From: Candidatus Deferrimicrobiaceae bacterium
Lineage (GTDB): Bacteria > Desulfobacterota > Deferrimicrobia > Deferrimicrobiales > Deferrimicrobiaceae
Assembly (NCBI GenBank): GCA_963792415.1
Contig: CAWBVY010000001.1
Location: 62,025-126,024, forward strand
Reading direction: 5' to 3'
Length of the DNA stretch: 64,000 nucleotides
Both the position numbers and the translations under genes were made by a program. This document shows, piece by piece, positions 9,206 through 62,848 of this stretch; the stretch's first letter is position 1, and each line of letters begins with the position of its first letter. The notes below the pieces were generated by a model that saw nothing but the letters and a program-made list of their open reading frames with translations, searched no databases and was not told where the DNA came from.

Positions 9206-11491
<2,286 letters not shown>

Positions 11492-11896: not shown

Positions 11897-11923
11897 GGTG
11901 CGCTGCGATTCCCGCGGGGTGCG

Positions 11924-12472: not shown

Positions 12473-12477
12473 CGGTT

Positions 12478-13311: not shown

Positions 13312-13312
13312 G

Positions 13313-14443
13313 CTACTTGACCTCCTTTACCTTGGCCAGGATCTGCGCCGGGTTGATCGGGTCGCCGTCGACCCGGTAGATCCCCTCCACCTTGCACCGG
13401 CACTTCGCGCACCGGTCCACCTCGAAGATGATCTGGCCCAGGGAGAGTTCTGGAACGATGATCCCCTTGACACGCCCGGAAAGCTCGGCGACCTGCTCCT
13501 CGGGGAACGGCCAGATGGTCAGAGGCCGGAACAGCCCGGCCTTGATCCCTTCCGCCCGGGCCGCCTCGACCGCCGTTTTCGCGGAGCGGCCGGAGACGCC
13601 GTAGGCGAAGATGGCGACGTCCGCGTCCTCCAGCAGGTACTCCTCGTACCTGATGATATCCGCCTTGTTGGCCTCGACCTTCCGCATCAGCCGCAGTTCG
13701 TCGGTGTGGATCCTCGGGGAGGCGTTCACGGGGAAGCCGTCGGTCCCGTGGTTCAGCCCCGTCACGTGATACCGGTACCCCTCGAAGAAGTTCGCCATCG
13801 GGGGGACGTCGCCCTTGCTGTCGTCGTACGGCAGGTACTCGGAGGGCGGACAGGTCGGCTTCGTCCGGTTGATGACCTCCAGGACGCCGGCGTCGGGGAT
13901 CTCGATCCGCTCCCGCATGTGCCCAACGATCTCGTCGAACGCGATGATCACCGGGGTGCGGTACTTCTCCGAGAGATTGAACGCCCGGACCGTCTCGGAG
14001 AAGATCTCCTGGACGTAGGCCGGCGTGAGGCAGATGACCGGGTGGTCGCCGTGCGTCCCCCACTTGCACTGCATGATGTCGCTCTGGCCGGGGCCGGTCG
14101 GAACGCCGGTCGACGGGCCGCCGCGCATCACGTTGACGATGACGCAGGGGATCTCCGTCAGCATGGCGAACCCCATGTTCTCCTGCTTGAGCGAGAAGCC
14201 GGGGCCGGAGGTGGCGGTGAGGGCCTTGCTGCCCGCGAGCGAACCTCCGATCACCGCCGCCATCGCCGCGATCTCGTCCTCCATCTGCAGGAAGACACCG
14301 CCGATCTGCGGAAGCCGCCTCGCCAGATACTCGGCCACCTCGGTCGACGGGGTGATCGGGTAGCCGCCGAAGAAGGTGCACCCCGCGTAGAGGGCCCCTT
14401 CCGCGCACGCCTCGTTACCCTGGAGCAGTTTGATCTTGCTCAC
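13313..14443 (-). CDS. korA: 2-oxoglutarate:ferredoxin oxidoreductase, alpha subunit
   Basis: 376 aa from GTG 14441-14443 (VSKIKLLQGNEACAEGALYAG…) with a GGAGAG RBS. The rest of the 1015-aa table ORF is an R-rich artefact. Confidence 0.85.
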   Translation of the reverse strand: MSKIKLLQGNEACAEGALYAGCTFFGGYPITPSTEVAEYLARRLPQIGGVFLQMEDEIAAMAAVIGGSLAGSKALTATSGPGFSLKQENMGFAMLTEIPCVIVNVMRGGPSTGVPTGPGQSDIMQCKWGTHGDHPVICLTPAYVQEIFSETVRAFNLSEKYRTPVIIAFDEIVGHMRERIEIPDAGVLEVINRTKPTCPPSEYLPYDDSKGDVPPMANFFEGYRYHVTGLNHGTDGFPVNASPRIHTDELRLMRKVEANKADIIRYEEYLLEDADVAIFAYGVSGRSAKTAVEAARAEGIKAGLFRPLTIWPFPEEQVAELSGRVKGIIVPELSLGQIIFEVDRCAKCRCKVEGIYRVDGDPINPAQILAKVKEVK

Positions 14444-14481
14444 CGTAATCTCTCCTTTGTCCGGGTTCGTATGGTGGAACG

Positions 14482-14715
14482 CTATTTCTTCTCCACGAAG
14501 ATGGCGAAGTCCGGGCACCGCAGCTCGCAAGCCATGCAGATCGTGCACTTGTCGATGTCCACCACCCTCACCTTGAACACGTCCATCCCGAGCACCTTCG
14601 TGGGGCACAGCTTCACGCAGATCTCGCACCCCTTGCAGTAGCGGGGGATGATGCTGATCTTGACCTTCGAACTCTCGGTCGCCTCGATCTTCTCCGCAGC
14701 CTGTTCCGTCGCCAT
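14482..14715 (-). CDS. korD: 2x[4Fe-4S] ferredoxin, oxoacid oxidoreductase delta subunit
   Basis: 77 aa with two CxxCxxCxxxCP motifs. Confidence 0.85.
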   Translation of the reverse strand: MATEQAAEKIEATESSKVKISIIPRYCKGCEICVKLCPTKVLGMDVFKVRVVDIDKCTICMACELRCPDFAIFVEKK

Positions 14716-14733
14716 CGGTTCCCGTCCCTTCCT

Positions 14734-15615
14734 TTAGTTGGCTTTCAGCCCAAGACGGCGGGCCAGGGTCTTCCCCATGTCGGAGGGCGTCTCGGACACG
14801 GAGATCCCCGCCGCCTTGAACGCCTCGATCTTCTCCGCAGCGGTCCCCTTCCCCCCGGAGATGACGGCGCCCGCGTGTCCCATCCGCTTCCCCTTGGGGG
14901 CGGTCTGGCCCGCGATGAACCCCACCACCGGCTTGGTCACGTGCGCCTTCACGTAGGCGGCCGCCTCTTCCTCCGCCATCCCGCCGATCTCGCCGATCAT
15001 GATGATGGCCTCGGTCTTCGGGTCGGCCTGGAAGGCGGAAAGGACGTCGATGAAGTTCGTCCCGTTGATGGGATCGCCGCCGATGCCGACGCAGGTGGAC
15101 TGCCCCAGCCCCACGCCGGTCACCTGGTGGACCGCCTCGTAGGTCAGCGTCCCGGACTTGGAGACGATGCCGATGGTGCCCGGCTTGTGGATGCTGCCCG
15201 GCATGATGCCGATCTTGCACTCCCCGGGCGTGATGACCCCCGGGCAGTTCGGCCCCACCAGCCGGGTCTTCTTCCCCTCCATGAATTTTTTCACCTTGAC
15301 CATGTCGAGGATGGGGATCCCCTCGGTGATGCACACCACGATGTCGAGCCCCGCGTCGAACGCCTCGCAGATCGCGTCCGCCGCGAACGCCGGGGGTACG
15401 TAGATCACCGACGCGTTGGCGCCGGTGGCCTTGACCGCATCGGTCACGGTGTTGAAGACCGGGACGCCCTCCACCTTGGTCCCCGCCTTGCCGGGGGTCA
15501 CGCCCCCGACGATCTTCGTGCCGTACTCCAGCATCTGCTTCGCGTGGAACGTCCCCACGGAGCCGGTGATCCCCTGAACGAGAACCTTGGTGTTCTTGTC
15601 GATGTATATGCTCAT
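14734..15615 (-). CDS. sucD: Succinate--CoA ligase (ADP-forming) alpha subunit
   Basis: 293 aa with conserved SucD sequence including the phosphohistidine loop (MGHAGAVI). Confidence 0.95.
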
Positions 15616-15627
15616 GGACGCGCCCCC

Positions 15628-16797
15628 TTAGTTCGCCCGGCCGGCGGCGGCCAGGACGACTTTCCTCGCCGCGTCGCCCATGTCGGCTGCGGAAATGATG
15701 TTGAGCTTCGACGCCGCGAGGATCTCCTTCCCCTTCTCCACGTTCGTCCCCTCGAGCCGGACGACCAGGGGGACCGTGAGACCGAGGGACTTCGCCGCCG
15801 TCACCACGCCTTCGGCGATGATGTCGCACCGCATGATCCCCCCGAAGATGTTCACGAGGATCGCCTTCACGCCCGCGTCGGACAGGATGAGCCGGAAGGC
15901 GTTGGTCACCTGCTCGACGCCCGCGCCGCCCCCCACGTCGAGGAAGTTCGCCGGGTTGCCGCCGCAGCTCTTGATCATGTCCATCGTGGCCATCGCCAGC
16001 CCCGCGCCGTTCACCATGCAGCCGATGTTGCCGTCGAGGCGGATGTAGGAGAGGTCGTGGTTCGACGCCTCCGTTTCCGTCGGGTCCTCCTCGTCGAAGT
16101 CCCGAAGCGCCTGGATGTCCTGGTGGCGGTACAGGCCGTTGCTCTCGAAGTTCATCTTCGCGTCCAGCGCGACGATGTCGCCGTCCTCGGTCAGGACGAG
16201 CGGGTTGATCTCGACCAGGGAGCAGTCCGTGCCCATGAAGGCGTTGTAAAGCCCCGTCATCAATTTCACCGCTTTCCCGGTAAGCTCCTTGGGGATCCCC
16301 AGCCCGAAGGCCAGTTTCCGGGCCTGGAACGCCACCAGGCCTACCGCCGGGTCCACCCACTCCTTCAGGATCTTTTCCGGGGTGTTGGCCGCGACGGTCT
16401 CGATGTCCATCCCGCCTTCCGTCGAGGCCATCACGACGACCTGCGAGGTCGCCCGGTCGACGATGATGCCGAGGTAGAGCTCCTTCTGGATCTTCCCCGC
16501 CTGCTCGACCAGGACGCGCTTGACCTTTTTCCCCTGGGGGCCCGTCTGGGGGGTCACCAGGGTCATCCCGATGATCTCATGGGCGTACTTCCGCGCCTCG
16601 GCGGAGGTCTTGGCGAGCTTCACGCCGCCGCCCTTCCCCCGGCCTCCCGCGTGGATCTGTGCCTTGATCACGACGGGTGTGCCGAACTCCTCGGCGATGA
16701 CCTCGGCCTGCGCCGGGGTGTCCGCCACCTTCCCTTTCGGCACGGTGACGCCGTACTTCGCCAGAACGGCCTTCGCCTGGTACTCGTGTATGTTCAT
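15628..16797 (-). CDS. sucC: Succinate--CoA ligase (ADP-forming) beta subunit
   Basis: 389 aa starting [17 protein letters not shown]…, a canonical SucC. Confidence 0.95.
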
Positions 16798-16855
16798 ATC
16801 CTCCGGCTCCTCCCGGTTGATTTGTGATCGATCCGATCCTTCGCGGGCGCGGGGT

Positions 16856-19087
<2,232 letters not shown>

Positions 19088-19091
<4 letters not shown>

Positions 19092-21196
19092 GGGGCCTCC
19101 ACGATGGTCATCCGGCAATCGATCGCGCGGATGCCTTTCCCTTTCGGCAGGACCAGCAAGGGGTTGATGTCGAGTTCCTGGATCTCCGGGAAGTCGCACG
19201 ACAGGCGCGACACCCGGATCAGCGCCTCCACGATCGCTTCCTCGTCCGCAGGCTCGCTCCCCCGGTATGCGGCGAGAAGAGGCCAGGCGCGGATCTCCCG
19301 GACCATCTCCTCGGCGTCCCGACGAGAAACCGGGGCCACCCGGAAAGAGACGTCCTTCAGCACCTCCACGTAGATCCCGCCCAGCCCGAACATCAGGAGC
19401 GGACCGAACTGGGGGTCGCGGCTCATCCCCACGATGAGTTCCCTGCCTCCCGTGACCATCTCCTGGATGGAGACGCCGGCGATCCAGGCCGATGGGGCCA
19501 GCCGGCGAACGGAAGAGGTGATCTCCATGAAGGCCCGGGCCACGTCGTCCGCGCCGCGAAGGCCGAGTCGAACGCCTCCGACATCGGTCTTGTGCAGGAT
19601 CTGCGGCGAGACGATCTTCATCGCCGCGGAATCGCACCCCATCTCCCGGTACGCCGCGACGGCGTCGTCGCTCGTCCCGGCGAAGGCGTGGCGTGGAAAC
19701 GTGAACCCGTAGGCTTCGAGGATTCCGCGCGACTCCTCCTCCCCGAGCGCTCTCCGCCCACCGGCAAGGGCTTCGGCCACGAGGCGCTTCGCGCTCTCCG
19801 GGGGGGTCGACGGGGCCTCCTCCTCCCCCTGCCTGCCCTCCGAGCGGATGCGGGAGTATCGAAGCATCGCGGAAAGGGTCTCCACCGCACGTTCGGGTAC
19901 CGCGTAGTTCGGGATGCCTCCGTCGCTGAGGATCCGGCGCGACGAGGCCACCGTGGCCTCTCCCAGGAAGGAGGCGAACACGGTCTTGCGGGAACCGGCG
20001 AAGGCGGCAACGGTCGCTCTCGCGGTCTCCTCCGGCTCCGTCATCGCCTGCGGCGTCAGCAGGACGAGGACGGCGTCGATCGACGGCTCGTCCCGGAGCG
20101 CGGAGAGTACGCTCCCGTACCGGTCCGCGCGGGCGTCCCCGATGATGTCCACCGGGTTCCCCAGGCTCGCCGTGGCCGGAAGCGCGGGAAGGATCCGCTC
20201 CCGAAGGGAGGCGGAGACCCCGGGGAGGGAGATGCCGAGGAGCGAAGCCGTGTCCGCAGCGAGGATCCCGGGCCCTCCCGCGTTCGTCAGGATCAGGAGC
20301 CGATCCCCCCCGGGGAGCGGCTGCATCGCGAATCCGAGGGCCAGGTCGAAGAGATCCTCCACCGTCTTCGCCCTGAGCACCCCGCCCTGGCGAAACGCCG
20401 CCCCGTAGGCGCTGTCGGAGCCTGCGAGGCTCCCCGTGTGGGAAGAGGCGGCGCGCGCGCCGGCGGCGGTCGCTCCCGCTTTCACGACGATGACCGGCTT
20501 GCGGGGGGTGACGTTCCGGGCCGCGCGCAGGAACCGGCGACCGTCGTCGATGCTCTCCACGTACCCGAGGATGACACGGGTCGACGGATCGTCGGCGAGG
20601 AACTCGAGGATGTCCGACTCCGAGATGTCGGCCTTGTTCCCGAGGCTCACGAACTTGGAGAAGCCGACGTTCCGGCCGATGGCCCAGTCGAGCACCGCGG
20701 TGCAGAGCGCCCCGGATTGGGAGAAGAAGGAGATGAATCCCTTCGGGGGCGTCCCGCGGGAGAACGATGCGTTCAGCGAGGCGTGGGTATCGATCAGGCC
20801 GAGGCAGTTGGGGCCCAGCACACGGACCCCCGCGGACGTCGCCGCCTCGCGCAGGGACCGTTCGAGGGCGACCCCCTCCCCCCCGATCTCCTTGAACCCG
20901 GCGGAGATGACGATCCCCGCGCGCATTCCCTTCGCCGCAAGCAGGGGAATCCCTTCGAGGATGGCTTTCGGCGGGACGACGAAGACGCCCAGGTCGACGG
21001 GCCCGGGGATCGCGTCGATGGACGGGTACAGCGCGTGGCCGAAAAGCTCTCCGCCGCCCGGATTCACCCCGTAGATCTTCCCCTGGAACGCGGCCTGCAC
21101 GAGGTTTGCGAACACCCCGTACCCGACTTTCTCCGGGTTTCGGGACGCCCCGACGACGGCAACCGACCCGGGATGGAACAGTTCACCAGGTAGCAT
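19088..21196 (-). CDS. acd: Acetate--CoA ligase (ADP-forming), fused alpha/beta (NDP-forming acyl-CoA synthetase family)
   Basis: 702 aa with CoA-binding, succinyl-CoA-synthetase-like and ATP-grasp domains. The catalytic-His region reads SSHTGSLAGS. Confidence 0.85.
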
Positions 21197-21215
21197 GGCC
21201 CCTCTTTGACGCGGG

Positions 21216-34509: not shown

Positions 34510-34998
34510 CTAAAGGTTCAGGAACTTGCGAAGATCCGCCTCGACGACCGCCTCCGTGACGGATTTCGCGATGGAAATCTCCTTCACGAGCAGGGAACGC
34601 GCCGAGTCCAGCATCTTCCGCTCGCCGAAGGAGAGGGCCTTCCCGTTTTTCAGGAGGAGAAGGTTGCGCAGCACCTCGGCGATGTCGAACGGGGAGCCGG
34701 ACTTGAGCTTTTCCATGTACATCCGGTACCGCCGGTTCCACGGCTTCGGCTCGAGCTCCACCTCGCGTTCCTTCAGGATCTTGTAGACGGAGCGGACCGC
34801 CGAGGCGTCCATGATCGCCCGAAGGCCGACCTGCTCGGCGTTGCCCATCGGGATCATGATGGTGATCCCCGTGTCGAGGATCCTCAGGACGTAAAACGAC
34901 TCCTTCTTGCCGTCGTTGAAGCACTTCGTCTCGATCTTTTCGACGATTCCGACCCCGTGTGCGGGGTATACTGCCATATCCCCTGCCTTGAAATCCAC
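34510..34998 (-). CDS. cdnL: CarD/CdnL-family RNA polymerase-binding transcription regulator
   Basis: 162 aa from GTG 34996-34998 (VDFKAGDMAVYPAHGVGIVEKIE…) with a GGAGG RBS. The table's ATG (MRKYP…) lies inside the promoter spacer and is rejected. Confidence 0.8.
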   Translation of the reverse strand: MDFKAGDMAVYPAHGVGIVEKIETKCFNDGKKESFYVLRILDTGITIMIPMGNAEQVGLRAIMDASAVRSVYKILKEREVELEPKPWNRRYRMYMEKLKSGSPFDIAEVLRNLLLLKNGKALSFGERKMLDSARSLLVKEISIAKSVTEAVVEADLRKFLNL

Positions 34999-35050
34999 GC
35001 GGACCTCCAGAGGATTCTTGCCGACGAGCAGGATCCCTTTTTTTCGGTGT

Positions 35051-35079
35051 ATTATAGGGTATTTTCGCATTAACGTCAA
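35051..35079 (-). promoter_or_regulatory. Strong sigma70-type promoter for cdnL.
   Basis: On the minus strand: TTGACG, then 17 nt (TTAATGCGAAAATACCC), then TATAAT. The predicted transcription start is near 35043, giving an about 45-nt leader to the cdnL GTG. Confidence 0.7.
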
Positions 35080-35094
35080 CGCGAGGCATCCTCG

Positions 35095-36162
35095 ATGCAA
35101 TCGACCGTCTGGTTCACCGATCTTTCCGCGCGCCCGGGGAACAGCCTGATCGACAAGACGGGGGCGCTCCTGCGGGCGGCCGGGATCCGGGAGCGGATCG
35201 GACGGGGCGCCCTGACCGCCGTCAAGCTCCACTTCGGGGAGAAGGGGAACACCGCCTTCCTCCGCCCGATCTTCGTCCGCAAGGTCGTCGAGGAGATCGC
35301 CGCCGCCGGGGGCAGGCCGTTCCTGACCGACACGAACACGCTGTATGTCGGCACCCGGAGCAACGCGGTCGATCACCTGAACACCGCGATTACAAACGGA
35401 TTTGCCTGGGCCGTGGCGGGGGCGCCCCTCGTCGTGGCGGACGGGCTCCGCGGGGAAAGCGCCGTCCGGGTGCCGATCGCGGGGAGGATCTTCCGCGAGG
35501 TTTCGATCGGGGCCGAAATCGTTCACGCGGACGCGCTGGTCGTGGTCACCCATTTCAAGGGGCACGAACTCTCCGGGTTCGGGGGTACGCTGAAAAACCT
35601 CGGGATGGGTTGCGCGGCGCGCTCCGGAAAGCTTTCCCAGCACTCCTCGGTGTCGCCCGCCGTCGATCCCTCGGGGTGCACGGGGTGCGGGACCTGCGTC
35701 GCCCACTGCCCGTCGGGAGCGATCGTCGTCATGGAAACGAAGGCGGCGATCTCGCAGGAATCGTGCATCGGGTGCGCGGACTGCATCGTCGTCTGCCCCG
35801 AGGGGACGGTGAACGTGGACTGGAACGAGGCGTCCTCGACGGTACAGGAAAAGATGGCCGAGCACGCGCTCGGGGCCGTCTCTGGGAAGCGGTCGTCTTC
35901 CCTGTTCCTCTCCTTCGTCACCCAGGTCTCCCCGTATTGCGACTGCTACGGCCACAACGACCGCCCGGTCGCGCCCGACGTCGGGATTCTCGCTTCCGAC
36001 GATCCCGTGGCGCTCGACCAGGCGTGCGTCGATCTCGTCATCAAGGCGTCGGGGATCGACCCGTTCCGGGCGACGCACCCCTCCGTGGACTGGTCCATCC
36101 AGCTTTCCCGCGCGGAGGAACTGGGCCTGGGAACCCGCGACTACCGGCTGGAGTCCCTGTGA
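35095..36162 (+). CDS. DUF362-domain protein with an inserted 2x[4Fe-4S] ferredoxin module
   Basis: 355 aa. A DUF362 fold with CTGCGTCVAHCP and CIGCADCIVVCP ferredoxin motifs plus extra Cys (CDCYGH). Confidence 0.75.
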   Translation: MQSTVWFTDLSARPGNSLIDKTGALLRAAGIRERIGRGALTAVKLHFGEKGNTAFLRPIFVRKVVEEIAAAGGRPFLTDTNTLYVGTRSNAVDHLNTAITNGFAWAVAGAPLVVADGLRGESAVRVPIAGRIFREVSIGAEIVHADALVVVTHFKGHELSGFGGTLKNLGMGCAARSGKLSQHSSVSPAVDPSGCTGCGTCVAHCPSGAIVVMETKAAISQESCIGCADCIVVCPEGTVNVDWNEASSTVQEKMAEHALGAVSGKRSSSLFLSFVTQVSPYCDCYGHNDRPVAPDVGILASDDPVALDQACVDLVIKASGIDPFRATHPSVDWSIQLSRAEELGLGTRDYRLESL

Positions 36163-36956
36163 CCCCGGAACGGAAGCTGTACGCCGGGATCGACATCGGT
36201 TCCCTCTCCACCGACGTGGTCCTGCTCGACGGGAACCTTGAAGTCGTCGGATCGGCCATCACCGCCACCGGCGCCTCCACGCGGAAAGCCGCCCGGGAGG
36301 CGCTCGACGCGGCCCTCCGGGCCGGAGGGGCGGCGGAGCGGGAGATCGCCTTCACCGTCGCGACGGGGTACGGAAGGGAATCGGTGGAGGGGGCCGACCT
36401 CCGCGTCACGGAGATCACGTGCCACGCCCGGGGGGCGCGGCGACTCTTCCCCGACGCGCGCACGGTCCTCGACATCGGCGGGCAGGACAGCAAGGTGATC
36501 CGGCTGGGTCCGGACGGAAAAGTCGCCGACTTCGCCATGAACGACAAGTGCGCCGCGGGGACCGGGAGGTTCCTCGAGGTGATGGCCAGGACGCTCGAGA
36601 TGGACCTGGAACGGATGGGAGAGCGCTCCCTCCTCGCCACCCGGTCGCTCACCGTGAGCTCCACCTGCACGGTCTTCGCCGAATCGGAGGTCGTTTCCCT
36701 CATCGCTTCGGGAGCCGCGCCGGAGGAGATCGCCTGGGGGGTGCACCTCGCGATCTCGGAGCGGATCGCCGCCCTCGCGGAGCGGCCCGGGATGGCTCCC
36801 CCCGCGGTCCTGACCGGCGGCGTTGCGAAGAACCCGGGGGCGCGCAAGGCGCTCGAGGACCGGTTCGGGATCCGCTTCCTCGTGCCGGACGAGCCGCAGC
36901 TCACCGGCGCGCTGGGCGCGGCGCTGATCGCCTTCGAGCGCGCCGCGGCCCTCTAG
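36159..36956 (+). CDS. BadF/BadG/BcrA/BcrD-type ATPase (HgdC-like CoA-substrate-specific enzyme activase)
   Basis: 265 aa from GTG 36159-36161, overlapping the DUF362 stop (GTGA). Acetate/sugar-kinase fold (LYAGIDIGSLSTD…) with the cluster-bridging Cys region (MNDKCAAGTGRFLE). Confidence 0.75.
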   Translation: MTPERKLYAGIDIGSLSTDVVLLDGNLEVVGSAITATGASTRKAAREALDAALRAGGAAEREIAFTVATGYGRESVEGADLRVTEITCHARGARRLFPDARTVLDIGGQDSKVIRLGPDGKVADFAMNDKCAAGTGRFLEVMARTLEMDLERMGERSLLATRSLTVSSTCTVFAESEVVSLIASGAAPEEIAWGVHLAISERIAALAERPGMAPPAVLTGGVAKNPGARKALEDRFGIRFLVPDEPQLTGALGAALIAFERAAAL

Positions 36957-38128
36957 GCCCGGGAGCGTTCCTCGCGCAGGATCGCGAAGAATCGGTCGAT
37001 CTCCTCGGGGGTGTTGTAGAAGTGCGGGGAGACGCGGATCCCCTTGGCCCGGTGGGAGCAGACCGCCTTCCGGTTCAGGAGGGCCCTCCAGAGGGCGGCG
37101 TTGTCCGCCTCCGGAACGCGGAACGTGACGATCCCCGACCGCTCCTCGGGGTGGTCGGGGGAAACCAGCAGGCACCCCTCCTCCCCCACCCGTTCGCGGA
37201 TCCGCTCCGTGAGGCGGCGCACCCGCTCCCAGATCCGGTCCACCCCGAGCGACAGCAGCAGCTCGAGCGAGGCGTTGAACGCCGACAGGCCGACCGTGTT
37301 CATGCTTCCCGGCTCGTACCGCCGGGCGTCGGGGGAAAGGCGGAAGTCGTAATTCTCGAAGTCGAACCGGTTCTTCACGGAGTGCCACCCGAGGATCACC
37401 GGCTCGACCATCTCCATGACGTCCCGGGAGATGTAGAAGCCGCCGATCCCCTCCGGCGACAGAAGCCATTTGTGGCCGTCCGCGGAGAGGGCGTCGATGC
37501 CGAAGGACTTCACGTCCATCGGGAGGACACCCAGGGACTGGATCGCATCCACACAGAAGAAGATGCCGTGCCTCTGGCAATACTCCCCGATACCCGCCAG
37601 GTCGTTCCGGTATCCGTTCGAAAATTCCACGGACGAGAGGGTGATCAGGCGGGTCTTCCCGTCGCACGCGTCGAACAGGTCCTCCTTGCGCACCCTCCCC
37701 TCGCGCGCGGGGACCATCCGGACCTCCACGTTGCGCGTCCGGAGCCGGAGCCAGGGATACACGTTGGAGGGGTACTCGACGTTCGACGTGACCAGGTTGT
37801 CCCCTTCCTTCCAGGGGAAACCGGCGGCGATGAAGGAAAGCCCCTCGGAGGTGTTCTTCACGAAGGCGATCTCGTCCGGTGAGGCGCCGACGATCCGCGC
37901 GAACCGGCCCCGCGTCTCGTTCGCCAGCTCCTCCCATTTCCGGAGGCGGAAGGCGCCCTCGTCCCGGGCGAGCTGCAGCATGTGGATCCCCGCCTCGGCG
38001 GAGCTCGCCGGGATGGGCGATACGCCCGCGTGGTTGAAGTACAGGAAATCTCCGGTGACCGGAAACTCCGCGGCCCGGATCGGCTCGACATCGATCGGCA
38101 AAGTGTCCCCCCAGGCCGGCCTTTTCAA
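36953..38128 (-). CDS. Class-V aminotransferase / cysteine desulfurase-like PLP enzyme; start uncertain.
   Basis: PLP fold with SADGHKWLLSPEGIGGFY (Lys-PLP region). The N-terminus …LPIDVEPIRAAEFP… is typical of SufS/IscS-like enzymes. Candidate TTG starts at 38128 or 38101. Confidence 0.7.
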   Translation of the reverse strand: MKRPAWGDTLPIDVEPIRAAEFPVTGDFLYFNHAGVSPIPASSAEAGIHMLQLARDEGAFRLRKWEELANETRGRFARIVGASPDEIAFVKNTSEGLSFIAAGFPWKEGDNLVTSNVEYPSNVYPWLRLRTRNVEVRMVPAREGRVRKEDLFDACDGKTRLITLSSVEFSNGYRNDLAGIGEYCQRHGIFFCVDAIQSLGVLPMDVKSFGIDALSADGHKWLLSPEGIGGFYISRDVMEMVEPVILGWHSVKNRFDFENYDFRLSPDARRYEPGSMNTVGLSAFNASLELLLSLGVDRIWERVRRLTERIRERVGEEGCLLVSPDHPEERSGIVTFRVPEADNAALWRALLNRKAVCSHRAKGIRVSPHFYNTPEEIDRFFAILREERSRA

Positions 38129-38159
38129 GGCCGGTCCGGTTATACGGTATAATATTTCG

Positions 38160-38972
38160 ATGGTTTGGTCAGGCGAAAACACATTGCGGTACAGCCGGAA
38201 CATCCTCGTCGAGGAACTGGGAGAGGCCGGACAGGAGCGGCTCTTCGCGTCGTCCGTGCTCGTCGTGGGCGCCGGGGGGCTGGGGTCCCCCGCCCTTCTC
38301 TACCTCGCCGCCGCGGGGATCGGACGGATCGGGGTGATCGACGACGACCGGGTGGACATCTCCAACTTCAACCGCCAGGTGATCCACCGGTCCGACGCCG
38401 TGGGCCAGTGGAAGACCGCCTCGGCGGCCGCGGCGCTGCGGACGTTCCGGACGGACCTGACGGTCGACGCCTACCCGGAGGCGCTCACCGCGGCGAACGC
38501 CGCCGCGCTGTTCCGGAAATACGACGCCGTCGTGGACGGCAGCGACAACTTCCCGACGAAGTACCTGTGCAACGACGCGGCGGTGGTGACCGGCCGACCG
38601 CTCGTGCACGCCGGGGTCCTGCGGTTCGGCGGCCAGATGCTCACGGTCGTCCCCGGCGCGGGACCTTGCCTGCGGTGCGTGATCCCACGGATCCCGTCGC
38701 GGAAGGACTCCCCCGGGTGCGCCGAGGCCGGCATCGTCGGCGCGGCCGCGGGCGTCGTCGGCGCGTGGCAGGCGATGGAGGCGATCAAGCTGCTCTCGTT
38801 CGCCGCACCGTCGCCGGCGGGGAAATTGCTGACCATCGACACGCTTTCGAACGAGGTGTCGTGCCTCACGGTCGTCCGCGACCGGTCGTGCCCCGCGTGC
38901 GGGGAAGATCCCCGGATCACGGAGCCGCTGTCCGACGCCGAATACGATCCCGAACGGAGTTGCGCCGTATGA
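38160..38972 (+). CDS. ThiF/MoeB-family E1-like adenylyltransferase; probably MoeB, given the adjacent mogA.
   Basis: 270 aa with the GAGGLGS nucleotide loop and a C-terminal CxxC…CxxC zinc motif. ATG at 38160, with TATAAT immediately upstream (38148-38153). Confidence 0.8.
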   Translation: MVWSGENTLRYSRNILVEELGEAGQERLFASSVLVVGAGGLGSPALLYLAAAGIGRIGVIDDDRVDISNFNRQVIHRSDAVGQWKTASAAAALRTFRTDLTVDAYPEALTAANAAALFRKYDAVVDGSDNFPTKYLCNDAAVVTGRPLVHAGVLRFGGQMLTVVPGAGPCLRCVIPRIPSRKDSPGCAEAGIVGAAAGVVGAWQAMEAIKLLSFAAPSPAGKLLTIDTLSNEVSCLTVVRDRSCPACGEDPRITEPLSDAEYDPERSCAV

Positions 38973-40009
38973 GCCTCCCCGCGACCCTCTCTCCTCCACG
39001 GAAGGCGGTCATTCTCCTCTCGGGGGGGCTCGACAGCACCCTGGCGGCCCGCATCGTCCGGGACCAGGGGATCGAGCTTCACGCGATCCATTTCACCTCG
39101 CCGTTCTGCACCTGCTCCCACAAGGGCCCGGGGAACGGGAACGGGTGCCGCTCGGCGGCGCAGGAGGTCGCGGTGGGGATGGGGATCCCGATCCGGACCG
39201 TTTCGAAGGGCGAGGAGTACCTCGAGATCGTCAAGCGCCCCCGGCACGGCCGGGGGTCGGCGATGAACCCGTGCATCGACTGCCGGATCTTCACCCTGCG
39301 GAAGGCGAAGGCGTTCATGGAGGAGATCGGCGCCTCCTTCCTGGTCACCGGGGAGGTCGTCGGGCAGCGGCCGATGTCCCAGCGGGACGACGCGCTGCGC
39401 GGCATCGAGAAGCACAGCGGATGCGCGGGGATCATCCTGCGCCCGCTTTCCGCCCACCACCTCCCCCCCTCGCTGCCGGAGCGGGAAGGCTGGGTGGACC
39501 GGGAGAAACTGCTCGCGATCACGGGGCGCTCCCGCAAGGAGCAGATCCGGCTCGCGGAGGAGTTCGGAATCGGCGACTACCCGTGCCCCGCGGGGGGATG
39601 CATGTTGACCGACCGGACCTTCTCCCTCAAGGTGCGGGATCTCCTCGACCACCACCCTTCCTTCGGGATGCACGAAGTCCTCCTCCTGAAGGCGGGCCGC
39701 CATTTCCGCGTTCGGGGGATCCGGGCGATCGTGGCGAAAAGCGAGGGGGAGAACCGCCGGCTCGAGGCCCTCTGCCGGGGGAGGGACACCGTCTACGTGG
39801 CGCACAGCCACCCGGGCCCGTCCGTGACGCTCCTGGGCGGAAGCGAGGAGGAACGCCTCGATCTGCTCTCCCGGATCTTCACCCGGTACGGCAAGGCTGG
39901 GTCGGTCGGTTCCTACGAAATCCGGGAGATCGCGCCCGGCGGGGAGCGACTCGTGACCGTGCCCGAAAACCCGGACTTCGAGGAGGTCGGGCGTGGACTC
40001 CTCTGCTGA
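38969..40009 (+). CDS. PP-loop ATP pyrophosphatase, ThiI-like adenylation domain, without THUMP or rhodanese domains; it has CxxC and CPxxxC motifs plus an uncharacterized C-terminal domain of about 120 aa.
   Basis: SGGLDS PP-loop. …NPCIDCRIFTLRKAKAFMEEIGASFLVTGEVVGQRPMSQ…ILRPL…DYPC… is colinear with the ThiI PP-loop domain. ATGA overlap with the E1 gene stop. Confidence 0.65.
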   Translation: MSLPATLSPPRKAVILLSGGLDSTLAARIVRDQGIELHAIHFTSPFCTCSHKGPGNGNGCRSAAQEVAVGMGIPIRTVSKGEEYLEIVKRPRHGRGSAMNPCIDCRIFTLRKAKAFMEEIGASFLVTGEVVGQRPMSQRDDALRGIEKHSGCAGIILRPLSAHHLPPSLPEREGWVDREKLLAITGRSRKEQIRLAEEFGIGDYPCPAGGCMLTDRTFSLKVRDLLDHHPSFGMHEVLLLKAGRHFRVRGIRAIVAKSEGENRRLEALCRGRDTVYVAHSHPGPSVTLLGGSEEERLDLLSRIFTRYGKAGSVGSYEIREIAPGGERLVTVPENPDFEEVGRGLLC

Positions 40010-40880
40010 CAAACGGAACGGCGCCCCGACGCCGGACGACCTTCGCCGCTACGAGGCGTTGCTCGAGGAGCTCCGCCGGATGGGGTCGGCCGTCGTCGCC
40101 TTCAGCGGCGGGGTGGACAGTTCGTTCCTGCTGCACGCAGCGAAGGCGGCGATGGGAGACCGGGTCCTGGCCGTCACCGCGACGTCGCCGACGTACCCCC
40201 GCTCCGAGCGGGAGGAGGCTTCGCGGCTCGCCCGCTCGTGGGGCGTGGCGCACCGTCTCGTCGAGTCGAACGAGCTGGAGATCCCCGGCTTCTCCGCGAA
40301 CCCTCCGGACCGGTGCTACCACTGCAAAAAGGAGCTGTTCGGGATCCTCGCCGGGATCGCCCGCGAAGAGGGGTACGCGGCCGTGTGCGACGGATCGAAC
40401 GCCGACGACCGGCACGACTTCCGGCCGGGGCGCCGCGCCGCGAAGGAGCTCGCCGTCCGCAGCCCGCTGCTCGAGAACGGACTGGGCAAGCCGGCGATCC
40501 GCCGCCTGAGCCGGAGCTTCGGTCTCCCCACGGCGGACCGCGGTTCGTTCGCGTGCCTCTCCTCGCGCTTCCCGTACGGAACGACGATCGACGAGGAGTC
40601 GCTGCGACGCGTGGAGGCGTGCGAGGAGGTGCTGCGGGGGTTCGGATTCCGGCAGTTCCGGGTGCGCGTCCACGGCGCGGTGGCGCGCATCGAAGTGGGG
40701 ACGGACGAGATCCCGCGCCTCTTCGAGCCGGAGATCTCCGGGGCGATCCACGATCGGTTCCGGGAGAACGGCTTTCTCTACGTCTCCGTGGACATCCGGG
40801 GGTACCGCACGGGTTCGATGAACGAGGGGCTGCCGGCATCGACCCTGGGACTCGTCGCAGGACCGCCCGAAGATCTGTAG
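39993..40880 (+). CDS. LarE-family PP-loop ATPase (TIGR00268 sulfur insertase), three-Cys [4Fe-4S]-type
   Basis: FSGGVDSS PP-loop. …ACLSSRFPYGTT…FRVRVHGAVARIEVG… matches LarE. The Cys in CYHCK plus ACLSSR indicate the Fe-S-dependent, non-sacrificial class. GTG start with a GAGGAGG RBS. Confidence 0.8.
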   Translation: MDSSADKRNGAPTPDDLRRYEALLEELRRMGSAVVAFSGGVDSSFLLHAAKAAMGDRVLAVTATSPTYPRSEREEASRLARSWGVAHRLVESNELEIPGFSANPPDRCYHCKKELFGILAGIAREEGYAAVCDGSNADDRHDFRPGRRAAKELAVRSPLLENGLGKPAIRRLSRSFGLPTADRGSFACLSSRFPYGTTIDEESLRRVEACEEVLRGFGFRQFRVRVHGAVARIEVGTDEIPRLFEPEISGAIHDRFRENGFLYVSVDIRGYRTGSMNEGLPASTLGLVAGPPEDL

Positions 40881-52282: not shown

Positions 52283-55200
52283 TCATGGTCCCTTCCCTTC
52301 CTTCGCCTTCGCCGTCATCGTCTCTTCCAGGAGCGCCTGCGCGGTCTCCAGCCGCTTCCGGATCGGAACCGCGAGGTCCGCGGGCCCCTTCTCGTCCTCG
52401 AGCCGGTCCAGCGCGCCGGCGTACCGGTCGAGGGACCGTTCGTAGAACGATCGCGCCCGATCCCGCAACGCCTCCTCGTATCCATCGCGGTCGTCCCCTT
52501 TCAGACCTTTCGGCCGCTGGGAGGCGAGGATCGCCTTCCCGTACTCCACGAGGAGATCGCCGGATAGAAGAGAGGCCTGGAGCGCCACCTCGAGAGGGGC
52601 CTCGCTCTCCGCCTTTTCGAAGTCGCCGAGAGCCCGCCGGAAGAACCGGTCCTTGATGGCGAGACTCTTCTCGAGGGGGACACGGAGGGGCGTCTTGCGG
52701 AACTGTTCGGCCCAGTTCTCCCCGACGGCGATGCGAACCTTCCCCGCCAATTCCGCGAACTCCTCGGGCGCCTCCGCTTCCACGCCCGCGTCCGCTTTTC
52801 GCAGCCCTTCCTCCATCAGGCGGATCGACGCCTTCGTCTCCCCCCGCCGCCAGCCGGCCAGCCCCGTGTACAAGGTGGCGTACGTCCACTTCCAGCGTGG
52901 GTCCGCGTACCGCGCGCGATAGGCATTGAAGCGCTTTTCCGCCGCCCCGGGAGGGCCGTGCTCTTCCGCGAGGCGCGCGGCGTGGAAGAGGAACCGCGGC
53001 GCGGCCTCGCCCTTCGGGAACCTCTCCGCCACGGCCTCGTAGAGTTCCCCGGCCTCGGCGAACTCCCCCTTCTCCTCGAAGAGGGGGCCGACCACGCTCG
53101 CCACCTCCACGGTTTCCTCCCTTCGGGGAAACTCTTTCCGGAAACGGAGGCCGGAACGGATGGCCCCTTCCGGATCCCCCCCCTTTGCGTACAACCGCAT
53201 CGCCCGGAGCAGGTAGATCGGGACCTCCGGCGCCCCGGGGAAACGGATGGAGACCTCCTCGAGCACGGCCGCCGCGCCCGACAGGTCTCCCGCGGCCTCC
53301 TTTCCACCCGCCTCCTTCAGGGAGGAGAGGAGATAGAGATCCTTCGCCCGGGCGCCTGCGCCGGCCCCGACCGAGGGGTCCGAAAGGACGACCGAAGACC
53401 CGCTCCTCGCGGCGACCACATTCCCCTCGAAGAGGGCGGACTCGGCCAGAACCAGGCGAGCCTGGGCGGTCTGCGCCGGGGTGGCGTACCGGCTCCTCTC
53501 GACTTCCGCCGCTACGCGCCGCGCGCGATCATTCTCCCGGGCCGACAGGAACGCGCTCGATGCCCGAAGCCCGAGGGAGGCCGACTTTTCGGAGGGATGT
53601 TCCTCGAGAAGAAGCAGGATGGCGTATTCCGCGCCCCCGGCGGGCGTCTCCTTCCTCTCGTACCCGGCGATCATCGTCTCCGCGTACAGGACGGCCGCCC
53701 GCTCCCCGGTGGCGTCCGACCTCCGCTCTCCCACCAGTTTTTCGAGGAGCAGCACCCCGCCTTCCCGGTCCCCCGAGCCGAGGAGAGCGATGGCCCACTT
53801 CAGGCGAAGTTCCCCATCCCCGTCCGACCGGTCATCCCCCTTCACCAGGAAATACTCCCTCGTCAATGCGGCGGACGAGGAAAGCGCCGAGCGTTCCCCG
53901 GAGCGGATCCCCTCGTCGAATTTTTTCCCGGCGAGGGTCCTGAGCATTGCAGCCAGTTCCTTTGCGGTCTTCTCTCCGACCGGGGCCGGCTGCGACCGTG
54001 CCCAGGCCGAATCCGGTCCGTACTTCCCGCGCAGGGTCAGGGCGCGGTCGAGCGCCTCCCTTTCCCGCCCGACCCGCAGGAGCGACTCCACCGTCTCCAT
54101 TTCGAGGGCCGCAGCGTTCGCGTCCGACGGGAATCGCCGGGCCGCGACGTCGCGCACTTCCGCCGCCCGCAAGGCCTCGCCGCGTTTCTCCTCGGCCTCC
54201 CAGAGGGCGGCGAGGAGGACCTTCCCGCCGCACGTCCCGGCGTTCACGGGGGGGTACGCGTCCAGCCGTTCCAGGGGCGCCTCCCTCCATGCGCGGACCG
54301 AAAGGGAGACGACCTCCCTTTCGAAGGGCGACGGGACACCGCAGGGGAACGAGGGATCGGAAAGGGGTCGGGACAATTCCCGGAGCGCCCCGCCGGCATC
54401 CCCGGACTGGAACCGGACCCAGGCCAGCATGTACCTGGCGACGGCGGAAGCGTCCGGGTTCCCGGCATCCGAGGCCGCGCGGTACCGTGAGATCGCCGCC
54501 GCGGTATCCCCGGCCAGGAGCGCCTCGTGCCCGAGGCGGACTCCGATCACGGCGGAGAGCGGAGAGGCGGGGTACTTCTGGAGGTACTCCCGCGCGGCGG
54601 ACCCGGCGCCCGGGTCTTTCACGGCCAGCCCCAGGGCCGCTCGCAGGTAGAGTCCCTCCTCCCGTCTCGCCCCGGAAACCCCTTCCCGCGGGAGGAGCGG
54701 GAGAACGCGCGCGATCAACTCCTTCTCCTTCTCGTCGGCTTCCGTGCCCGGATACCGTGTCCACCGGTCCCTTCCCTCGGAAAGAACGGAGCCGATCCCG
54801 ATGGCGACGTCGGGCGCGTCCGCCGGCGCGAGGCGGTCGCCGGTCAGGAGGGAAACCGCGCGTCCGAGGGCGGCGAGGGATTCCCCGTGGGCCGGCTCTC
54901 CCGGCTCCAACCGCAGCCGGCGGGCCTGTCCGATCAGGGCGTCCGCCAGCTGACGGTCGACCACGGCAAGAAGGGCGAGCAACTCCGGCTTCCTCCGCTC
55001 CCAGGCGGCGGCCCGCTCCCTTTCCTCCAGGGTTCGCACGACCGGAAGGAGCGCGGTCACGCGGCCGTCGGCGTACGCGATCGATTCCCGCATCACATGG
55101 TCGAGGGGATCCTCCGCCGGCTCCTGCTTCTTCCTCAGGATGTCGAAGTACTGCTTCGTGAAATCCCGCGTTTCGGCGGCCATGGACCGGATCTTGTCCA

Positions 55201-56656
55201 GCTCGTTCAGGAAGAGTCCCACGTCCTTCAGGAGTCCGGGGGCGGTCCCGTCCCTGCCGGTCTCGATGGTGGCTACGGTCGCATCCCGCCGCTCCCGGAT
55301 CCGCTCCCGGAGAAGGTGGATCTCTTCCTGGCTCTTTTCCAGGCGCGTGAGGCGGCGGTATCGCTGGATCGGGTGGCCGAGGTTCTGGAGGGTATCGAGC
55401 GTGGCGGCCATCCGCTCCACCAGGCGGTCGACCTCGATGCCGTCCAGGGACACCTCCTCGATCCTCCGGACGATCTCCGCGATCTCCTCCGCGGTGAGGA
55501 ACCGGAGACCCTCGGGGGACGGCGTGTCCGCCGCTGCCAGGGAGACCGTCCGGTCGGCAAAGAGCATGCCGACCAGGAGTTCCACCACCTCGGCGCGCGC
55601 CGACGCGTCCGGCCCGGGCTCCCGCCAGGAGAGTTCCTGCCGGAGGGCCCGCAGCATCTCCATCTGAAGCCGGAGGGACTCGACGGTTTCGGAACGGCCC
55701 GACGGCTCGGAGGAAGGAGGCGACGGCACGGACAATGCGTCTTCCAGCTCCTTTCCTGCCCGGGTCAGGCGGTCGACCGCCGTCTCGTCGCGCCCGCTTT
55801 CCCTTGCGAGCCCCCCGAGAAGGAGGAGGAACCGGACCCGGTCCTCGAGGGGCCGCCCGGCGATCATCTCGGCCGGCAGATGGTCGAGGGCATGCACGGA
55901 ATTGTCCCCGGCGGCGGCCAGGCCGATCCGGTCCAGCGGGTTCTTCTCTTTCCACAGCAGGGCCTCGAACAGTGGCACTGCCTCGGGGCCGCGTCCGGCC
56001 GCAAGCAACACTTCCGCCCGCGATCTCGATGCCCTCGCCGCAAGAAAGTCGCTCCATTCGCTCCTCCCGGCCTCTTCTTCCACGCGTTGGAAGAGGTTCA
56101 GCGCCGTCGAGGTTTCCCTCCCCTCGGAGGCGATCTGGCCGAGGGAGTACAGGGCGAGGAGCCGGTACGGCTCTTCCGTTCCGACCTGGGCCAGGATGGC
56201 GGAGGCATCCCCCAGCCGTCCCCGGATCCGCCGCAGCCCCGTGCCGTAGGAATACAGGATCAGGGGCGTCCGGATCCCGCTGCGGATGGCGGTCTCGCAG
56301 ACCGCGACGAGGCGTTCGGGATCGTCGTATCGTCCCTGCGCGCTGACGACTTCATCGAAGAGCGGCGCCGCCGCCGTCGCCGGGAACACGCCCAGGCCGA
56401 CCCTCCGTTCGAGAAGCGATGCCGCTTCCGCAAGGAGCCCCAGGGACATGTATCCCTTGAAAAGGGAGCGGGTGCCGTCGATGGTCACCGCGTCGGACGC
56501 CTCGAGACGTGCCATTTCGGTGAGGGAGACGCCGGCACTCGCCGGGAACGGGATGGCAATAACCGAAAACAGGATCGCGCAGGCGAGGAAAGAGAGGAAG
56601 GGTCGTCCGGCGGCTATGGGGGAGAGGGTCGTTTCACGTTTCGAATTGGATTTCAT
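52283..56656 (-). CDS. Very large (1457 aa) secreted TPR/alpha-solenoid protein
   Basis: Signal peptide (…FLACAILFSVIAIPFPASAG). Continuous non-biased alpha-helical repeat sequence over 4.4 kb. GAGG RBS. Confidence 0.7.
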   Translation of the reverse strand: MKSNSKRETTLSPIAAGRPFLSFLACAILFSVIAIPFPASAGVSLTEMARLEASDAVTIDGTRSLFKGYMSLGLLAEAASLLERRVGLGVFPATAAAPLFDEVVSAQGRYDDPERLVAVCETAIRSGIRTPLILYSYGTGLRRIRGRLGDASAILAQVGTEEPYRLLALYSLGQIASEGRETSTALNLFQRVEEEAGRSEWSDFLAARASRSRAEVLLAAGRGPEAVPLFEALLWKEKNPLDRIGLAAAGDNSVHALDHLPAEMIAGRPLEDRVRFLLLLGGLARESGRDETAVDRLTRAGKELEDALSVPSPPSSEPSGRSETVESLRLQMEMLRALRQELSWREPGPDASARAEVVELLVGMLFADRTVSLAAADTPSPEGLRFLTAEEIAEIVRRIEEVSLDGIEVDRLVERMAATLDTLQNLGHPIQRYRRLTRLEKSQEEIHLLRERIRERRDATVATIETGRDGTAPGLLKDVGLFLNELDKIRSMAAETRDFTKQYFDILRKKQEPAEDPLDHVMRESIAYADGRVTALLPVVRTLEERERAAAWERRKPELLALLAVVDRQLADALIGQARRLRLEPGEPAHGESLAALGRAVSLLTGDRLAPADAPDVAIGIGSVLSEGRDRWTRYPGTEADEKEKELIARVLPLLPREGVSGARREEGLYLRAALGLAVKDPGAGSAAREYLQKYPASPLSAVIGVRLGHEALLAGDTAAAISRYRAASDAGNPDASAVARYMLAWVRFQSGDAGGALRELSRPLSDPSFPCGVPSPFEREVVSLSVRAWREAPLERLDAYPPVNAGTCGGKVLLAALWEAEEKRGEALRAAEVRDVAARRFPSDANAAALEMETVESLLRVGREREALDRALTLRGKYGPDSAWARSQPAPVGEKTAKELAAMLRTLAGKKFDEGIRSGERSALSSSAALTREYFLVKGDDRSDGDGELRLKWAIALLGSGDREGGVLLLEKLVGERRSDATGERAAVLYAETMIAGYERKETPAGGAEYAILLLLEEHPSEKSASLGLRASSAFLSARENDRARRVAAEVERSRYATPAQTAQARLVLAESALFEGNVVAARSGSSVVLSDPSVGAGAGARAKDLYLLSSLKEAGGKEAAGDLSGAAAVLEEVSIRFPGAPEVPIYLLRAMRLYAKGGDPEGAIRSGLRFRKEFPRREETVEVASVVGPLFEEKGEFAEAGELYEAVAERFPKGEAAPRFLFHAARLAEEHGPPGAAEKRFNAYRARYADPRWKWTYATLYTGLAGWRRGETKASIRLMEEGLRKADAGVEAEAPEEFAELAGKVRIAVGENWAEQFRKTPLRVPLEKSLAIKDRFFRRALGDFEKAESEAPLEVALQASLLSGDLLVEYGKAILASQRPKGLKGDDRDGYEEALRDRARSFYERSLDRYAGALDRLEDEKGPADLAVPIRKRLETAQALLEETMTAKAKEGKGP

Positions 56657-57005: not shown

Positions 57006-57101
57006 CTACTTTTTCCCGGTCCGCCGGGACCTTACGTAGATGTAAATCGCGAGAACGACACAAAAAACAACGATCCAGGGAAGGGCATTGCCCAGATCCA
57101 T
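57006..57101 (-). CDS. Small single-TM membrane protein, 31 aa (MDLGNALPWIVVFCVVLAIYIYVRSRRTGKK)
   Basis: AGGAGG, then 6 nt, then ATG. Hydrophobic helix followed by a basic C-tail. It overlaps the tadC 3' end in another frame. It was hidden in a long spurious table ORF. Confidence 0.55.
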   Translation of the reverse strand: MDLGNALPWIVVFCVVLAIYIYVRSRRTGKK

Positions 57102-58084
57102 GTCCGACCTCCTTTGTTGGTTGCCACGGTCATTTTTGAATAGAGCGGAAAAAGTATCCTCAAGACCTGGATGACACCCGGCCCGAGAATGACGATGAAC
57201 AACGCCGGGAACATCAGGAACACGAGCGGGAATACGAGCTTGATGGTCGTCTTCGCCGCGGCCTCTTCGGCCTTCTGCCGACGCCGCATCCGCAGGGAGT
57301 CGGAGTGGACCCGCAGGGACTGCGCGAGGCTCGTCCCCAGTTTCTCCGTCTGGATCAGCATCGCAACGAGGGACTTGACGTCCTCCACCCCGGTTCTTTC
57401 CGTAAGAGCCCGCAACGCATCCTGCCGGGGTTTCCCCGCCACCATCTCCCGGTTGACGATGTCGAACTCTTCGCTCAACGCGGGACTGGAAAGCTTGAAT
57501 TCCTCCGTGATCTTTACGAAGGAGGCGTTCAGCCCGAGGCCCGCCTCGACGCAGACGACCAGCAGGTCCAGTCCGTCCGGGAGGGAGTCCGTGATCTCCT
57601 CCTGGCGCTTGCGGATCTTCGCTCGAAGCACGAAATCCGGAAGGAGAAACCCGGCGATTCCCGCCACGAGGACCATCAGGAAGATCGACTTGCTCGCAAT
57701 CCCGGTGACCTTCCCGTAGACCACGGCAAGGACCACCAGAACGACCGGCAACGCCCAGCGAACCCCAAGGTAGATCTGATACGCTCCCGAGCTCCGGATC
57801 CCCGCCTGGTTCAGGAGGAGGCGTCCGCCGGTAAGTTCCTTCCCCGAAAGCATCTCCACAAGTTCGATTTCCGTGGGCGCTTTCGCGGAAAACCACTTCC
57901 GTACCTTTCCGAGCCACTCTCCCGCGGATGCCACAATCCGGCCGCGGGGAGCGTCCGCCTCCTCCCCCACGATCTCCTTGAACCGTTGCGGCAGCGACTC
58001 CTTCCGGGATTCCAGCCACAGGTACAACCCGATCGATCCGATTGCCGTCGCCAGGAAGATCGAAACCGACAAGAAGAGAATCAA
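57032..58084 (-). CDS. tadC: Tad/Flp pilus assembly protein TadC (T2SS-F family)
   Basis: 350 aa polytopic GspF-like protein. The C-terminal about 25 aa overlap the small ORF and may not all be real. Confidence 0.8.
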   Translation of the reverse strand: MILFLSVSIFLATAIGSIGLYLWLESRKESLPQRFKEIVGEEADAPRGRIVASAGEWLGKVRKWFSAKAPTEIELVEMLSGKELTGGRLLLNQAGIRSSGAYQIYLGVRWALPVVLVVLAVVYGKVTGIASKSIFLMVLVAGIAGFLLPDFVLRAKIRKRQEEITDSLPDGLDLLVVCVEAGLGLNASFVKITEEFKLSSPALSEEFDIVNREMVAGKPRQDALRALTERTGVEDVKSLVAMLIQTEKLGTSLAQSLRVHSDSLRMRRRQKAEEAAAKTTIKLVFPLVFLMFPALFIVILGPGVIQVLRILFPLYSKMTVATNKGGRTWIWAMPFPGSLFFVSFSRFTST

Positions 58085-58097
58085 GGGTTCCCCCGTC

Positions 58098-59060: not shown

Positions 59061-59073
59061 CCTCGGCCTCCCC

Positions 59074-60441: not shown

Positions 60442-60442
60442 C

Positions 60443-61639: not shown

Positions 61640-61646
61640 TCCTCTC

Positions 61647-62826: not shown

Positions 62827-62848
62827 ATTCCCCTGTTCCCGCGTCGGC

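Follow-up and report, generated by a model that had tools for sequence, protein, structure and literature searches.

Which protein does a [4Fe-4S] ATPase energise when the only gene coupled to it encodes a ferredoxin-bearing member of the DUF362 family? The question is raised by two plus-strand genes in a 64-kb stretch of DNA from a Candidatus Deferrimicrobiaceae bacterium, here called the window: a DUF362-Fer4 gene at 35095-36162 and, overlapping its end, a gene at 36159-36956 for an HgdC/HadI-type ATPase of the acyl-CoA dehydratase activase family ("archerase"). An earlier note on this DNA had placed a DUF362 protein and an HgdC/BcrAD-type ATPase at these coordinates, and matches to PF04015, PF01869 and TIGR00241 confirm both. 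The note had gone on to propose an ATP-driven reductive activation system; a real archerase tightly coupled to DUF362 stands, but not a general system, the pair being confined to one family-level clade. The pairing is real and unusual, and we met it in no lineage but the uncultured Deferrimicrobiaceae. To our knowledge only three classes of ATP-driven electron "energisers" have been described, the archerases among them, and the DUF362-activase pair may represent a novel type of ATP-powered reductase. We tentatively favour, as a distinct possibility, a lineage-specific two-component redox system in which the archerase would inject low-potential electrons into the Fe-S chain of the DUF362 protein.

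An HgdC/HadI-type ATPase coupled to a DUF362 gene

The activase has 265 residues and a GTG start. It matches BcrAD_BadFG (PF01869) with an E-value of 5.3e-62 and the acyl-CoA dehydratase activase model TIGR00241 with 265.5 bits against a cutoff of 125.4, and its PDB matches are MbdQ (E 3.9e-72), HadI (3.2e-68), HgdC (2.4e-65) and DCCP-R (6.7e-49). Cys131 (NDKCAAGTGRF) and Cys170 (SSTCTVFAESE) align residue for residue with the corresponding MbdQ and HadI motifs, and from what the structures of HgdC and HadI have established we take them to be the ligands of the [4Fe-4S] cluster that bridges the two subunits of the dimer. GIDIGS, DIGGQD and GGVAKN, the phosphate and adenosine motifs of ASKHA proteins, are intact. 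Homologues are 261-267 residues long; alternative in-frame starts would either add 45-74 residues that have no counterpart in homologues or lose the GIDIGS ATP motif. Judged by these motifs the activase is a complete, bona fide homodimer-type archerase, like the HgdC of HgdC/HgdAB and the HadI of HadI/HadBC a single-gene ASKHA ATPase with both cluster-bridging cysteines and the ATP motifs. Its best solved-structure match, MbdQ, comes from the class I benzoyl-CoA reductases (BcrAD/BzdPQ/MbdPQ), but those enzymes combine two different ATPase subunits with BcrBC, whereas here we found a single ATPase gene and no BcrBC in the window; moreover, the activase scores far under the equivalog cutoffs for BzdQ (176 against 380 bits), BcrA (155 against 578) and BcrD (114 against 313).

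The two genes are joined as the earlier note had described. The activase GTG (36159-36161) overlaps the DUF362 stop codon TGA (36160-36162) in a GTGA, and GGAG (36150-36153) precedes it with a 5-nt spacer, the whole coupling junction occupying 36150-36162 of the plus strand. Eight other distinct loci of the clade (L001 and L003-L009; L002 is a duplicate of L001), which span 71-93% DUF362 identity, keep a tight junction in the form of GTGA, TGATG, TAGTG or a spacer of ~14 nt. There was no terminator-like site between the two genes, and no Rfam match at threshold in the junction and leader or in the 96-bp intergenic region upstream of the DUF362-Fer4 gene. A sub-threshold SAM riboswitch match at 36100-36179 (20.7 against 44.4 bits, E 0.23) was judged a chance one.

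A DUF362 core interrupted by a ferredoxin module

The DUF362-Fer4 gene encodes 355 residues, a core into which a 2x[4Fe-4S] ferredoxin module has been inserted. The Pfam DUF362 (PF04015) match covers residues 42-313 (E 1.5e-51, 175.8 bits against a cutoff of 24) and is broken at residues 188-240 by 4Fe-4S motifs of the ferredoxin type, which match Fer4 families with E-values of 1e-9 to 1e-12. The inserted module, residues 189-246 (35659-35832, plus strand), contains two CxxCxxCxxxCP motifs, C195/198/201/205 and C224/227/230/234, holding 8 of the 12 cysteines of the protein; the others are C173, C282, C284 and C311. In calling this protein a polyferredoxin with extra Cys the earlier note was right about the two clusters and about further cysteines, but the term overstates what is one 2x[4Fe-4S] module.

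Conservation was followed in two sets, one of 151 aligned sequences (the window protein and 150 representatives at 32-55% identity) and one of 82 DUF362-Fer4 orthologues. All eight cysteines of the ferredoxin module are kept in at least 145 of the 151 sequences. A Cys282-Asp283-Cys284 motif (35938-35946, plus strand) is present in essentially all ungapped representatives and in 82/82 orthologues, and falls in a loop (residues 285-288) that the AlphaFold2 model predicts with low confidence; His153, Lys179, Arg88 and Asp116 are near-invariant as well in both sets. A third [4Fe-4S] cluster on C173, C282 and C284 was considered and is weakened by the presence of C173 in only 85 of the 151. That the DUF362 protein has its own two-cluster electron-entry module, together with further invariant Cys and His residues, supports a role as acceptor of electrons from the archerase.

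The remainder of the protein has few guides. An NCBIfam scan and the PDB sequence matches cover its ferredoxin part only, and the DUF362 core had no homologue in PDB by sequence search. Relatives are named "DUF362 domain-containing protein" or "uncharacterized Fe-S center protein" (COG2768-type) by their sources, and our literature search found no paper assigning a function to DUF362. Four representatives (P0248, P0260, P0261 and P0265) carry N-terminal extensions of 230-480 residues that hold no Pfam domain and may reflect either unknown domains or, the genomes being GC-rich, wrongly called starts.

A predicted lactate racemase fold

The DUF362-Fer4 core is predicted to have the alpha/beta fold of the lactate racemase LarA, a likeness that the earlier note did not recognise and that alters the likely identity of the activase's partner. 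One paper uses DUF362 as an outgroup for LarA, and both belong to Pfam clan CL0471. Taking the LarA sequence and numbering from Dataset S2 of PMC7583248, hhalign placed His157, Lys167 and His183 opposite LarA His174, Lys184 and His200, both locally (E 0.023) and globally (P 6.5e-5, with a profile of 150 DUF362 representatives). The spacing of the trio, 10 and 16 residues, is identical in the two proteins, which also have a G-F-x-G stretch in common. In LarA, His174 is a catalytic histidine, Lys184 tethers the nickel-pincer nucleotide (NPN) and His200 ligates nickel. The putative active-site segment of the DUF362 protein (THFKGHELSGFGGTLKNLGMGCAARSGKLSQHS; 35563-35643, plus strand) is strongly conserved, with H157 in 147/151, K167 in 150/151 and H183 in 149/151 sequences and each in at least 97% of the 82 orthologues. 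We base homology to LarA on the fold match and the common Pfam clan, the hhalign statistics being weak alone.

The likeness is a partial one. By its predicted fold and its candidate NPN-tethering Lys and Ni-ligating His the protein resembles the LarA superfamily, but it gives no Pfam LarA_N match at the sequence level, lacks the large LarA C-terminal domain, and carries a 2x[4Fe-4S] module and a Cys-Asp-Cys motif that LarA has not. LarA His108 stands opposite Leu83, which is not conserved, in the global hhalign alignment, leaving one of the two catalytic histidines without a counterpart; known single-His LarA homologues retain the equivalent of His108, not that of His174 (PMC12611868). In a low-confidence region of the same alignment, Asn52 lies opposite the ribose-contacting Asp72 and a gap opposite the phosphate- and substrate-contacting Arg75. 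Because the ferredoxin module begins six residues after His183, its clusters may feed the putative active site. Our literature search found no paper discussing the match between the DUF362 trio and LarA, or the Cys-Asp-Cys motif.

These features allow a more daring reading, that DUF362-Fer4 is a second, Fe-S-wired branch of the LarA superfamily, binding a nickel-pincer-type or related nicotinate-derived cofactor at Lys167 and His183, performing net redox chemistry and not racemisation, and driven in Deferrimicrobiaceae by the archerase. We consider this unlikely to be correct as a whole. Were it true, it would give the first ATP-driven electron injector acting on a partner outside the HGD-D family. 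The search for new nickel-pincer users is an active one: hundreds of prokaryotes produce the cofactor yet lack LarA (PMC13524815), and recent work has added as user families the aldo-keto reductase (AKR)-type NphT and an ornithine cyclodeaminase, with DUF362 unmentioned there. DUF362 is a concrete candidate, a family of at least 920 clusters (counted at 50% identity and E<=1e-30) in which the cofactor-anchoring Lys and His of LarA are kept, and the presence of LarE close by in this lineage and in a syntenic sister lineage adds to its candidacy. No LarA_N, LarB or LarC was found in the Pfam-scanned open reading frames (ORFs) of the window.

No HGD-D partner in the window

Every characterised archerase partners a protein of the FldB/C (HGD-D) family, and the known partners are all Fe-S proteins that are reduced at a cluster (PMC7317905). 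Known activases usually adjoin, or are fused to, their partner (PMC7317905). The ORFs of the window were called by codon-position GC content and then scanned against Pfam; four (glyS, aspS, uvrB and cysS) were identified by eye, outside the scan. Neither HGD-D (PF06050; HgdAB/BcrBC/DCCP-type) nor DUF2229 was found in the scanned ORFs, which extend 35 kb upstream and 27 kb downstream, and a nearby canonical HGD-D partner was rejected on this ground. Locus L001 likewise had no PF06050 protein within 8 kb on either side. The absence of a canonical partner beside the pair, on which the earlier note had built and whose reversal it had named as the finding to fear, therefore holds within the window.

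In having no PF06050 gene in 64 kb, and a coupled gene for a protein of predicted LarA fold, the locus differs from HgdC/HgdAB and HadI/HadBC. Its two-gene logic, an archerase with a cysteine-rich Fe-S protein that has no assigned physiological substrate, is that of DCCP-R/DCCP (YjiL/YjiM), but DCCP is an FldB/C (HGD-D) family protein with a 7-Cys motif (PMC7317905) and DUF362 has neither its fold nor its motif. Since no HGD-D partner was found we do not class the pair with HgdC-HgdAB, benzoyl-CoA reductase or DCCP, though it may still work like them.

A possible route for electrons

We suggest that the DUF362-activase pair may act by analogy with HgdC on HgdAB or DCCP-R on DCCP, with a partner of different fold. 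The ATPase would first be reduced by ferredoxin or flavodoxin, would then bind ATP and dock on the DUF362 protein, and would inject a low-potential electron, first into the two-cluster module and from there into the catalytic centre, reducing or re-activating that centre; the ferredoxin module would probably serve as the wire. Orthologues that have no ATPase would presumably take electrons directly from low-potential ferredoxin, and the Deferrimicrobiaceae ancestor would have recruited the archerase as a dedicated, ATP-driven reductant. Gene identities, motifs, the coupling junction, the predicted fold and the distribution are what we observed; that the two proteins interact physically, which way the electrons flow and what kind of cofactor the catalytic centre holds are inferred in this scheme. 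Should a LarA-fold Fe-S protein prove a genuine partner, archerases would power a wider chemistry.

Electrons could also run the other way, with DUF362-Fer4 oxidising a substrate at its LarA-like site and re-reducing the activase cluster through the ferredoxin module, and the activase energising some other acceptor. Archerases do require a ferredoxin-like reductant (PMC7317905), the DUF362 protein contains a ferredoxin module, and the residues that it has in common with LarA point to hydride or redox chemistry with a small molecule as substrate. Yet no acceptor candidate lies nearby in the window, and the orthologues that occur without any activase indicate that donating electrons to one was not the ancestral role; we regard this reversed polarity as improbable. 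The two-component system in which DUF362 receives electrons gains slight support from a paper describing the genome of one MBNT15 member, in which benzoyl-CoA reductase and 2-hydroxyacyl-CoA dehydratase are unmentioned.

Where the pair occurs

For both proteins the close homologues belong to metagenome-assembled genomes of Candidatus Deferrimicrobiaceae / MBNT15; the few at 74-79% identity that carry other phylum names are probably binning errors. The activase lies directly downstream of DUF362 in 10/10 Deferrimicrobiaceae-type loci (the window and L001-L009, at least 71% identity), and these loci share synteny over an entire block of ~13 kb that runs from uvrC to larE. Because this synteny runs throughout the clade, the ten loci amount to effectively one evolutionary event and not to independent evidence.

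Outside the clade, where our genome-collection scan for DUF362-Fer4 (80 loci) led us, the picture weighs against a functional pair. None of 73 orthologues from other Thermodesulfobacteriota, at 49-60% identity and drawn among others from Desulfobacterales, Geobacterales, Syntrophorhabdia and Syntrophales, has an activase within the flanks examined, which downstream reach at least 0.9 kb in 64 of these loci and at least 3 kb in 47. The sister lineage at L083 (59% identity) has the comEC-uvrC-uvrB-cysS-ispDF-cdnL/DUF362 synteny and no activase. A degenerate DNA pattern describing a non-clade DUF362 gene followed by the activase GxDxG motif found 5 matches in metagenomes, 0 with an activase, and so no independent tandem (anchor sensitivity 47 of ~75 loci; a positive-control version recovered 8 of 9 clade loci). 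No DUF362-activase fusion occurs among the 10 longest of the 150 representatives, which are DUF362+Fer4 only or carry unrelated pentapeptide or ankyrin repeats. Only A293 and P323 separate the DUF362 proteins of the clade from the rest, and with just two clade-specific residues nothing points to a docking surface that has adapted. The predicted fold of DUF362, moreover, is unrelated to that of any known archerase partner, and in a pair restricted to one syntenic clade adjacency may be inherited history. The conservation in other genomes that the earlier note had proposed to look for is thus complete within the Deferrimicrobiaceae-type loci and nil among the orthologues elsewhere, within those flanks.

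The distribution bears most directly on the idea that adjacency is a passenger effect, the activase having been inserted beside DUF362 in the Deferrimicrobiaceae ancestor, where it is co-transcribed with DUF362 and serves an HGD-D partner encoded elsewhere in the genome, such as a 2-hydroxyacyl-CoA dehydratase, a benzoyl-CoA reductase-like protein or a double-cubane protein. A single phylogenetic origin inside a conserved-synteny block, no independent tandem or fusion found elsewhere, and clade DUF362 proteins that are ordinary orthologues are all as this idea would have them, as is the exclusive use of FldB/C (HGD-D) proteins by characterised archerases (PMC7317905). What speaks for DUF362 as the partner is that no HGD-D gene was found in the 64-kb window, that activases usually adjoin or are fused to what they serve (PMC7317905), and that start/stop coupling is kept clade-wide, beyond the needs of co-transcription. 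On balance we think the passenger explanation somewhat unlikely, and continue to prefer, tentatively, a two-component system of archerase and DUF362 protein.

A generally conserved pair was rejected, the activase occurring among 82 loci only in the Deferrimicrobiaceae clade. Nor did we find another conserved neighbour of DUF362 outside the clade: the commonest neighbours are heterogeneous, each in at most 10 loci, and comprise a response regulator-HD protein, a YkgJ-like Cys-rich protein, an acyl-CoA dehydrogenase, thioredoxin, a rhodanese-like protein and D-Tyr-tRNA deacylase. In another relative, L085, the neighbours are unrelated.

Neighbouring genes

Upstream of the pair lies the divergent cdnL (34510-34998, minus strand), of the CarD/CdnL family with CarD_TRCF_RID and CarD_C domains, followed by ispDF, cysS, uvrB and uvrC. 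The intergenic region common to cdnL and DUF362-Fer4 (34999-35094) is 96 bp long, as in the earlier note, provided that cdnL starts at GTG 34998 (162 residues). We favour this start because the L001 orthologue also has 162 residues and because a sigma70-like site, TTGACG-17-TATAAT on the minus strand at 35079-35051 (11/12 matches; mean of 0.1 in shuffles), lies inside the longest possible cdnL ORF. The alternative ATG at 35070 would leave a 24-bp spacer, and the 24 residues that it adds are not conserved. No plus-strand consensus promoter was found in the 96-bp region. The divergent cdnL/DUF362 pair recurs in L010, L058 and L083, all of which lack the activase.

Downstream, in order, are a convergent cysteine-desulfurase-like gene, an operon of ThiF-like, ThiI-like and LarE genes, mogA and a GAF-GGDEF gene. 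The convergent gene (36953-38203, minus strand) encodes a class-V aminotransferase or cysteine-desulfurase-like protein (Aminotran_5, E 1e-54, and cysteine desulfurase family models); its 3' end overlaps that of the activase gene by 4 bp (36953-36956), with no terminator-like site found between them. With it, a ThiF/MoeB-like E1 protein, a ThiI-like PP-loop protein with NFACT-R_2, and LarE form a sulfur-transfer cluster at 36953-40880 that adjoins the DUF362-activase pair; the same cluster is found at 10969-14908 in L001 and at 11133-15025 in L083. LarE, the sulfur insertase of the NPN cofactor (39993-40880, plus strand), reaches 311.8 bits with the equivalog TIGR00268 against a cutoff of 150 and has SGGxDS and CxxC...C, the motifs that define the [4Fe-4S] type of LarE (PMC9283937). 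In L083 the LarE operon block is turned round, so that LarE and DUF362 converge across a gap of 62 bp.

The activase might then serve this sulfur-transfer and nickel-pincer module, for example as reductant in the regeneration of the LarE cluster: it is located between DUF362 and the module, and the [4Fe-5S] cycle of LarE is said to require an extra reductant (PMC9283937). We think this very improbable, as the activase is translationally coupled to DUF362 and not to the LarE operon, a convergent gene stands between (with variable inserted genes in relatives), and L083 has the same module with no activase. A response-regulator/HD-domain gene lies between the activase and the aminotransferase-like gene in L001 (9879-10943) and in L006-L009 (~7.9-9.0 kb); it is missing in the window and L004, and relatives of its family occur near DUF362 in a few unrelated lineages.

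Farther away, a central-metabolism block on the minus strand of the window (9206-21202) encodes monomeric isocitrate dehydrogenase, ndk, four 2-oxoglutarate:ferredoxin oxidoreductase subunits, sucCD, mdh, a DRTGG/AAA_26 protein and an ADP-forming acetyl-CoA synthetase. Toward the other end, a gene for a 1443-residue TPR protein (52283-56614) precedes a Tad/Flp-type pilus cluster at 57032-63999, with TadB/TadC-like T2SSF proteins, a CpaF-type ATPase, a CpaE-like response-regulator/ParA protein and a secretin.

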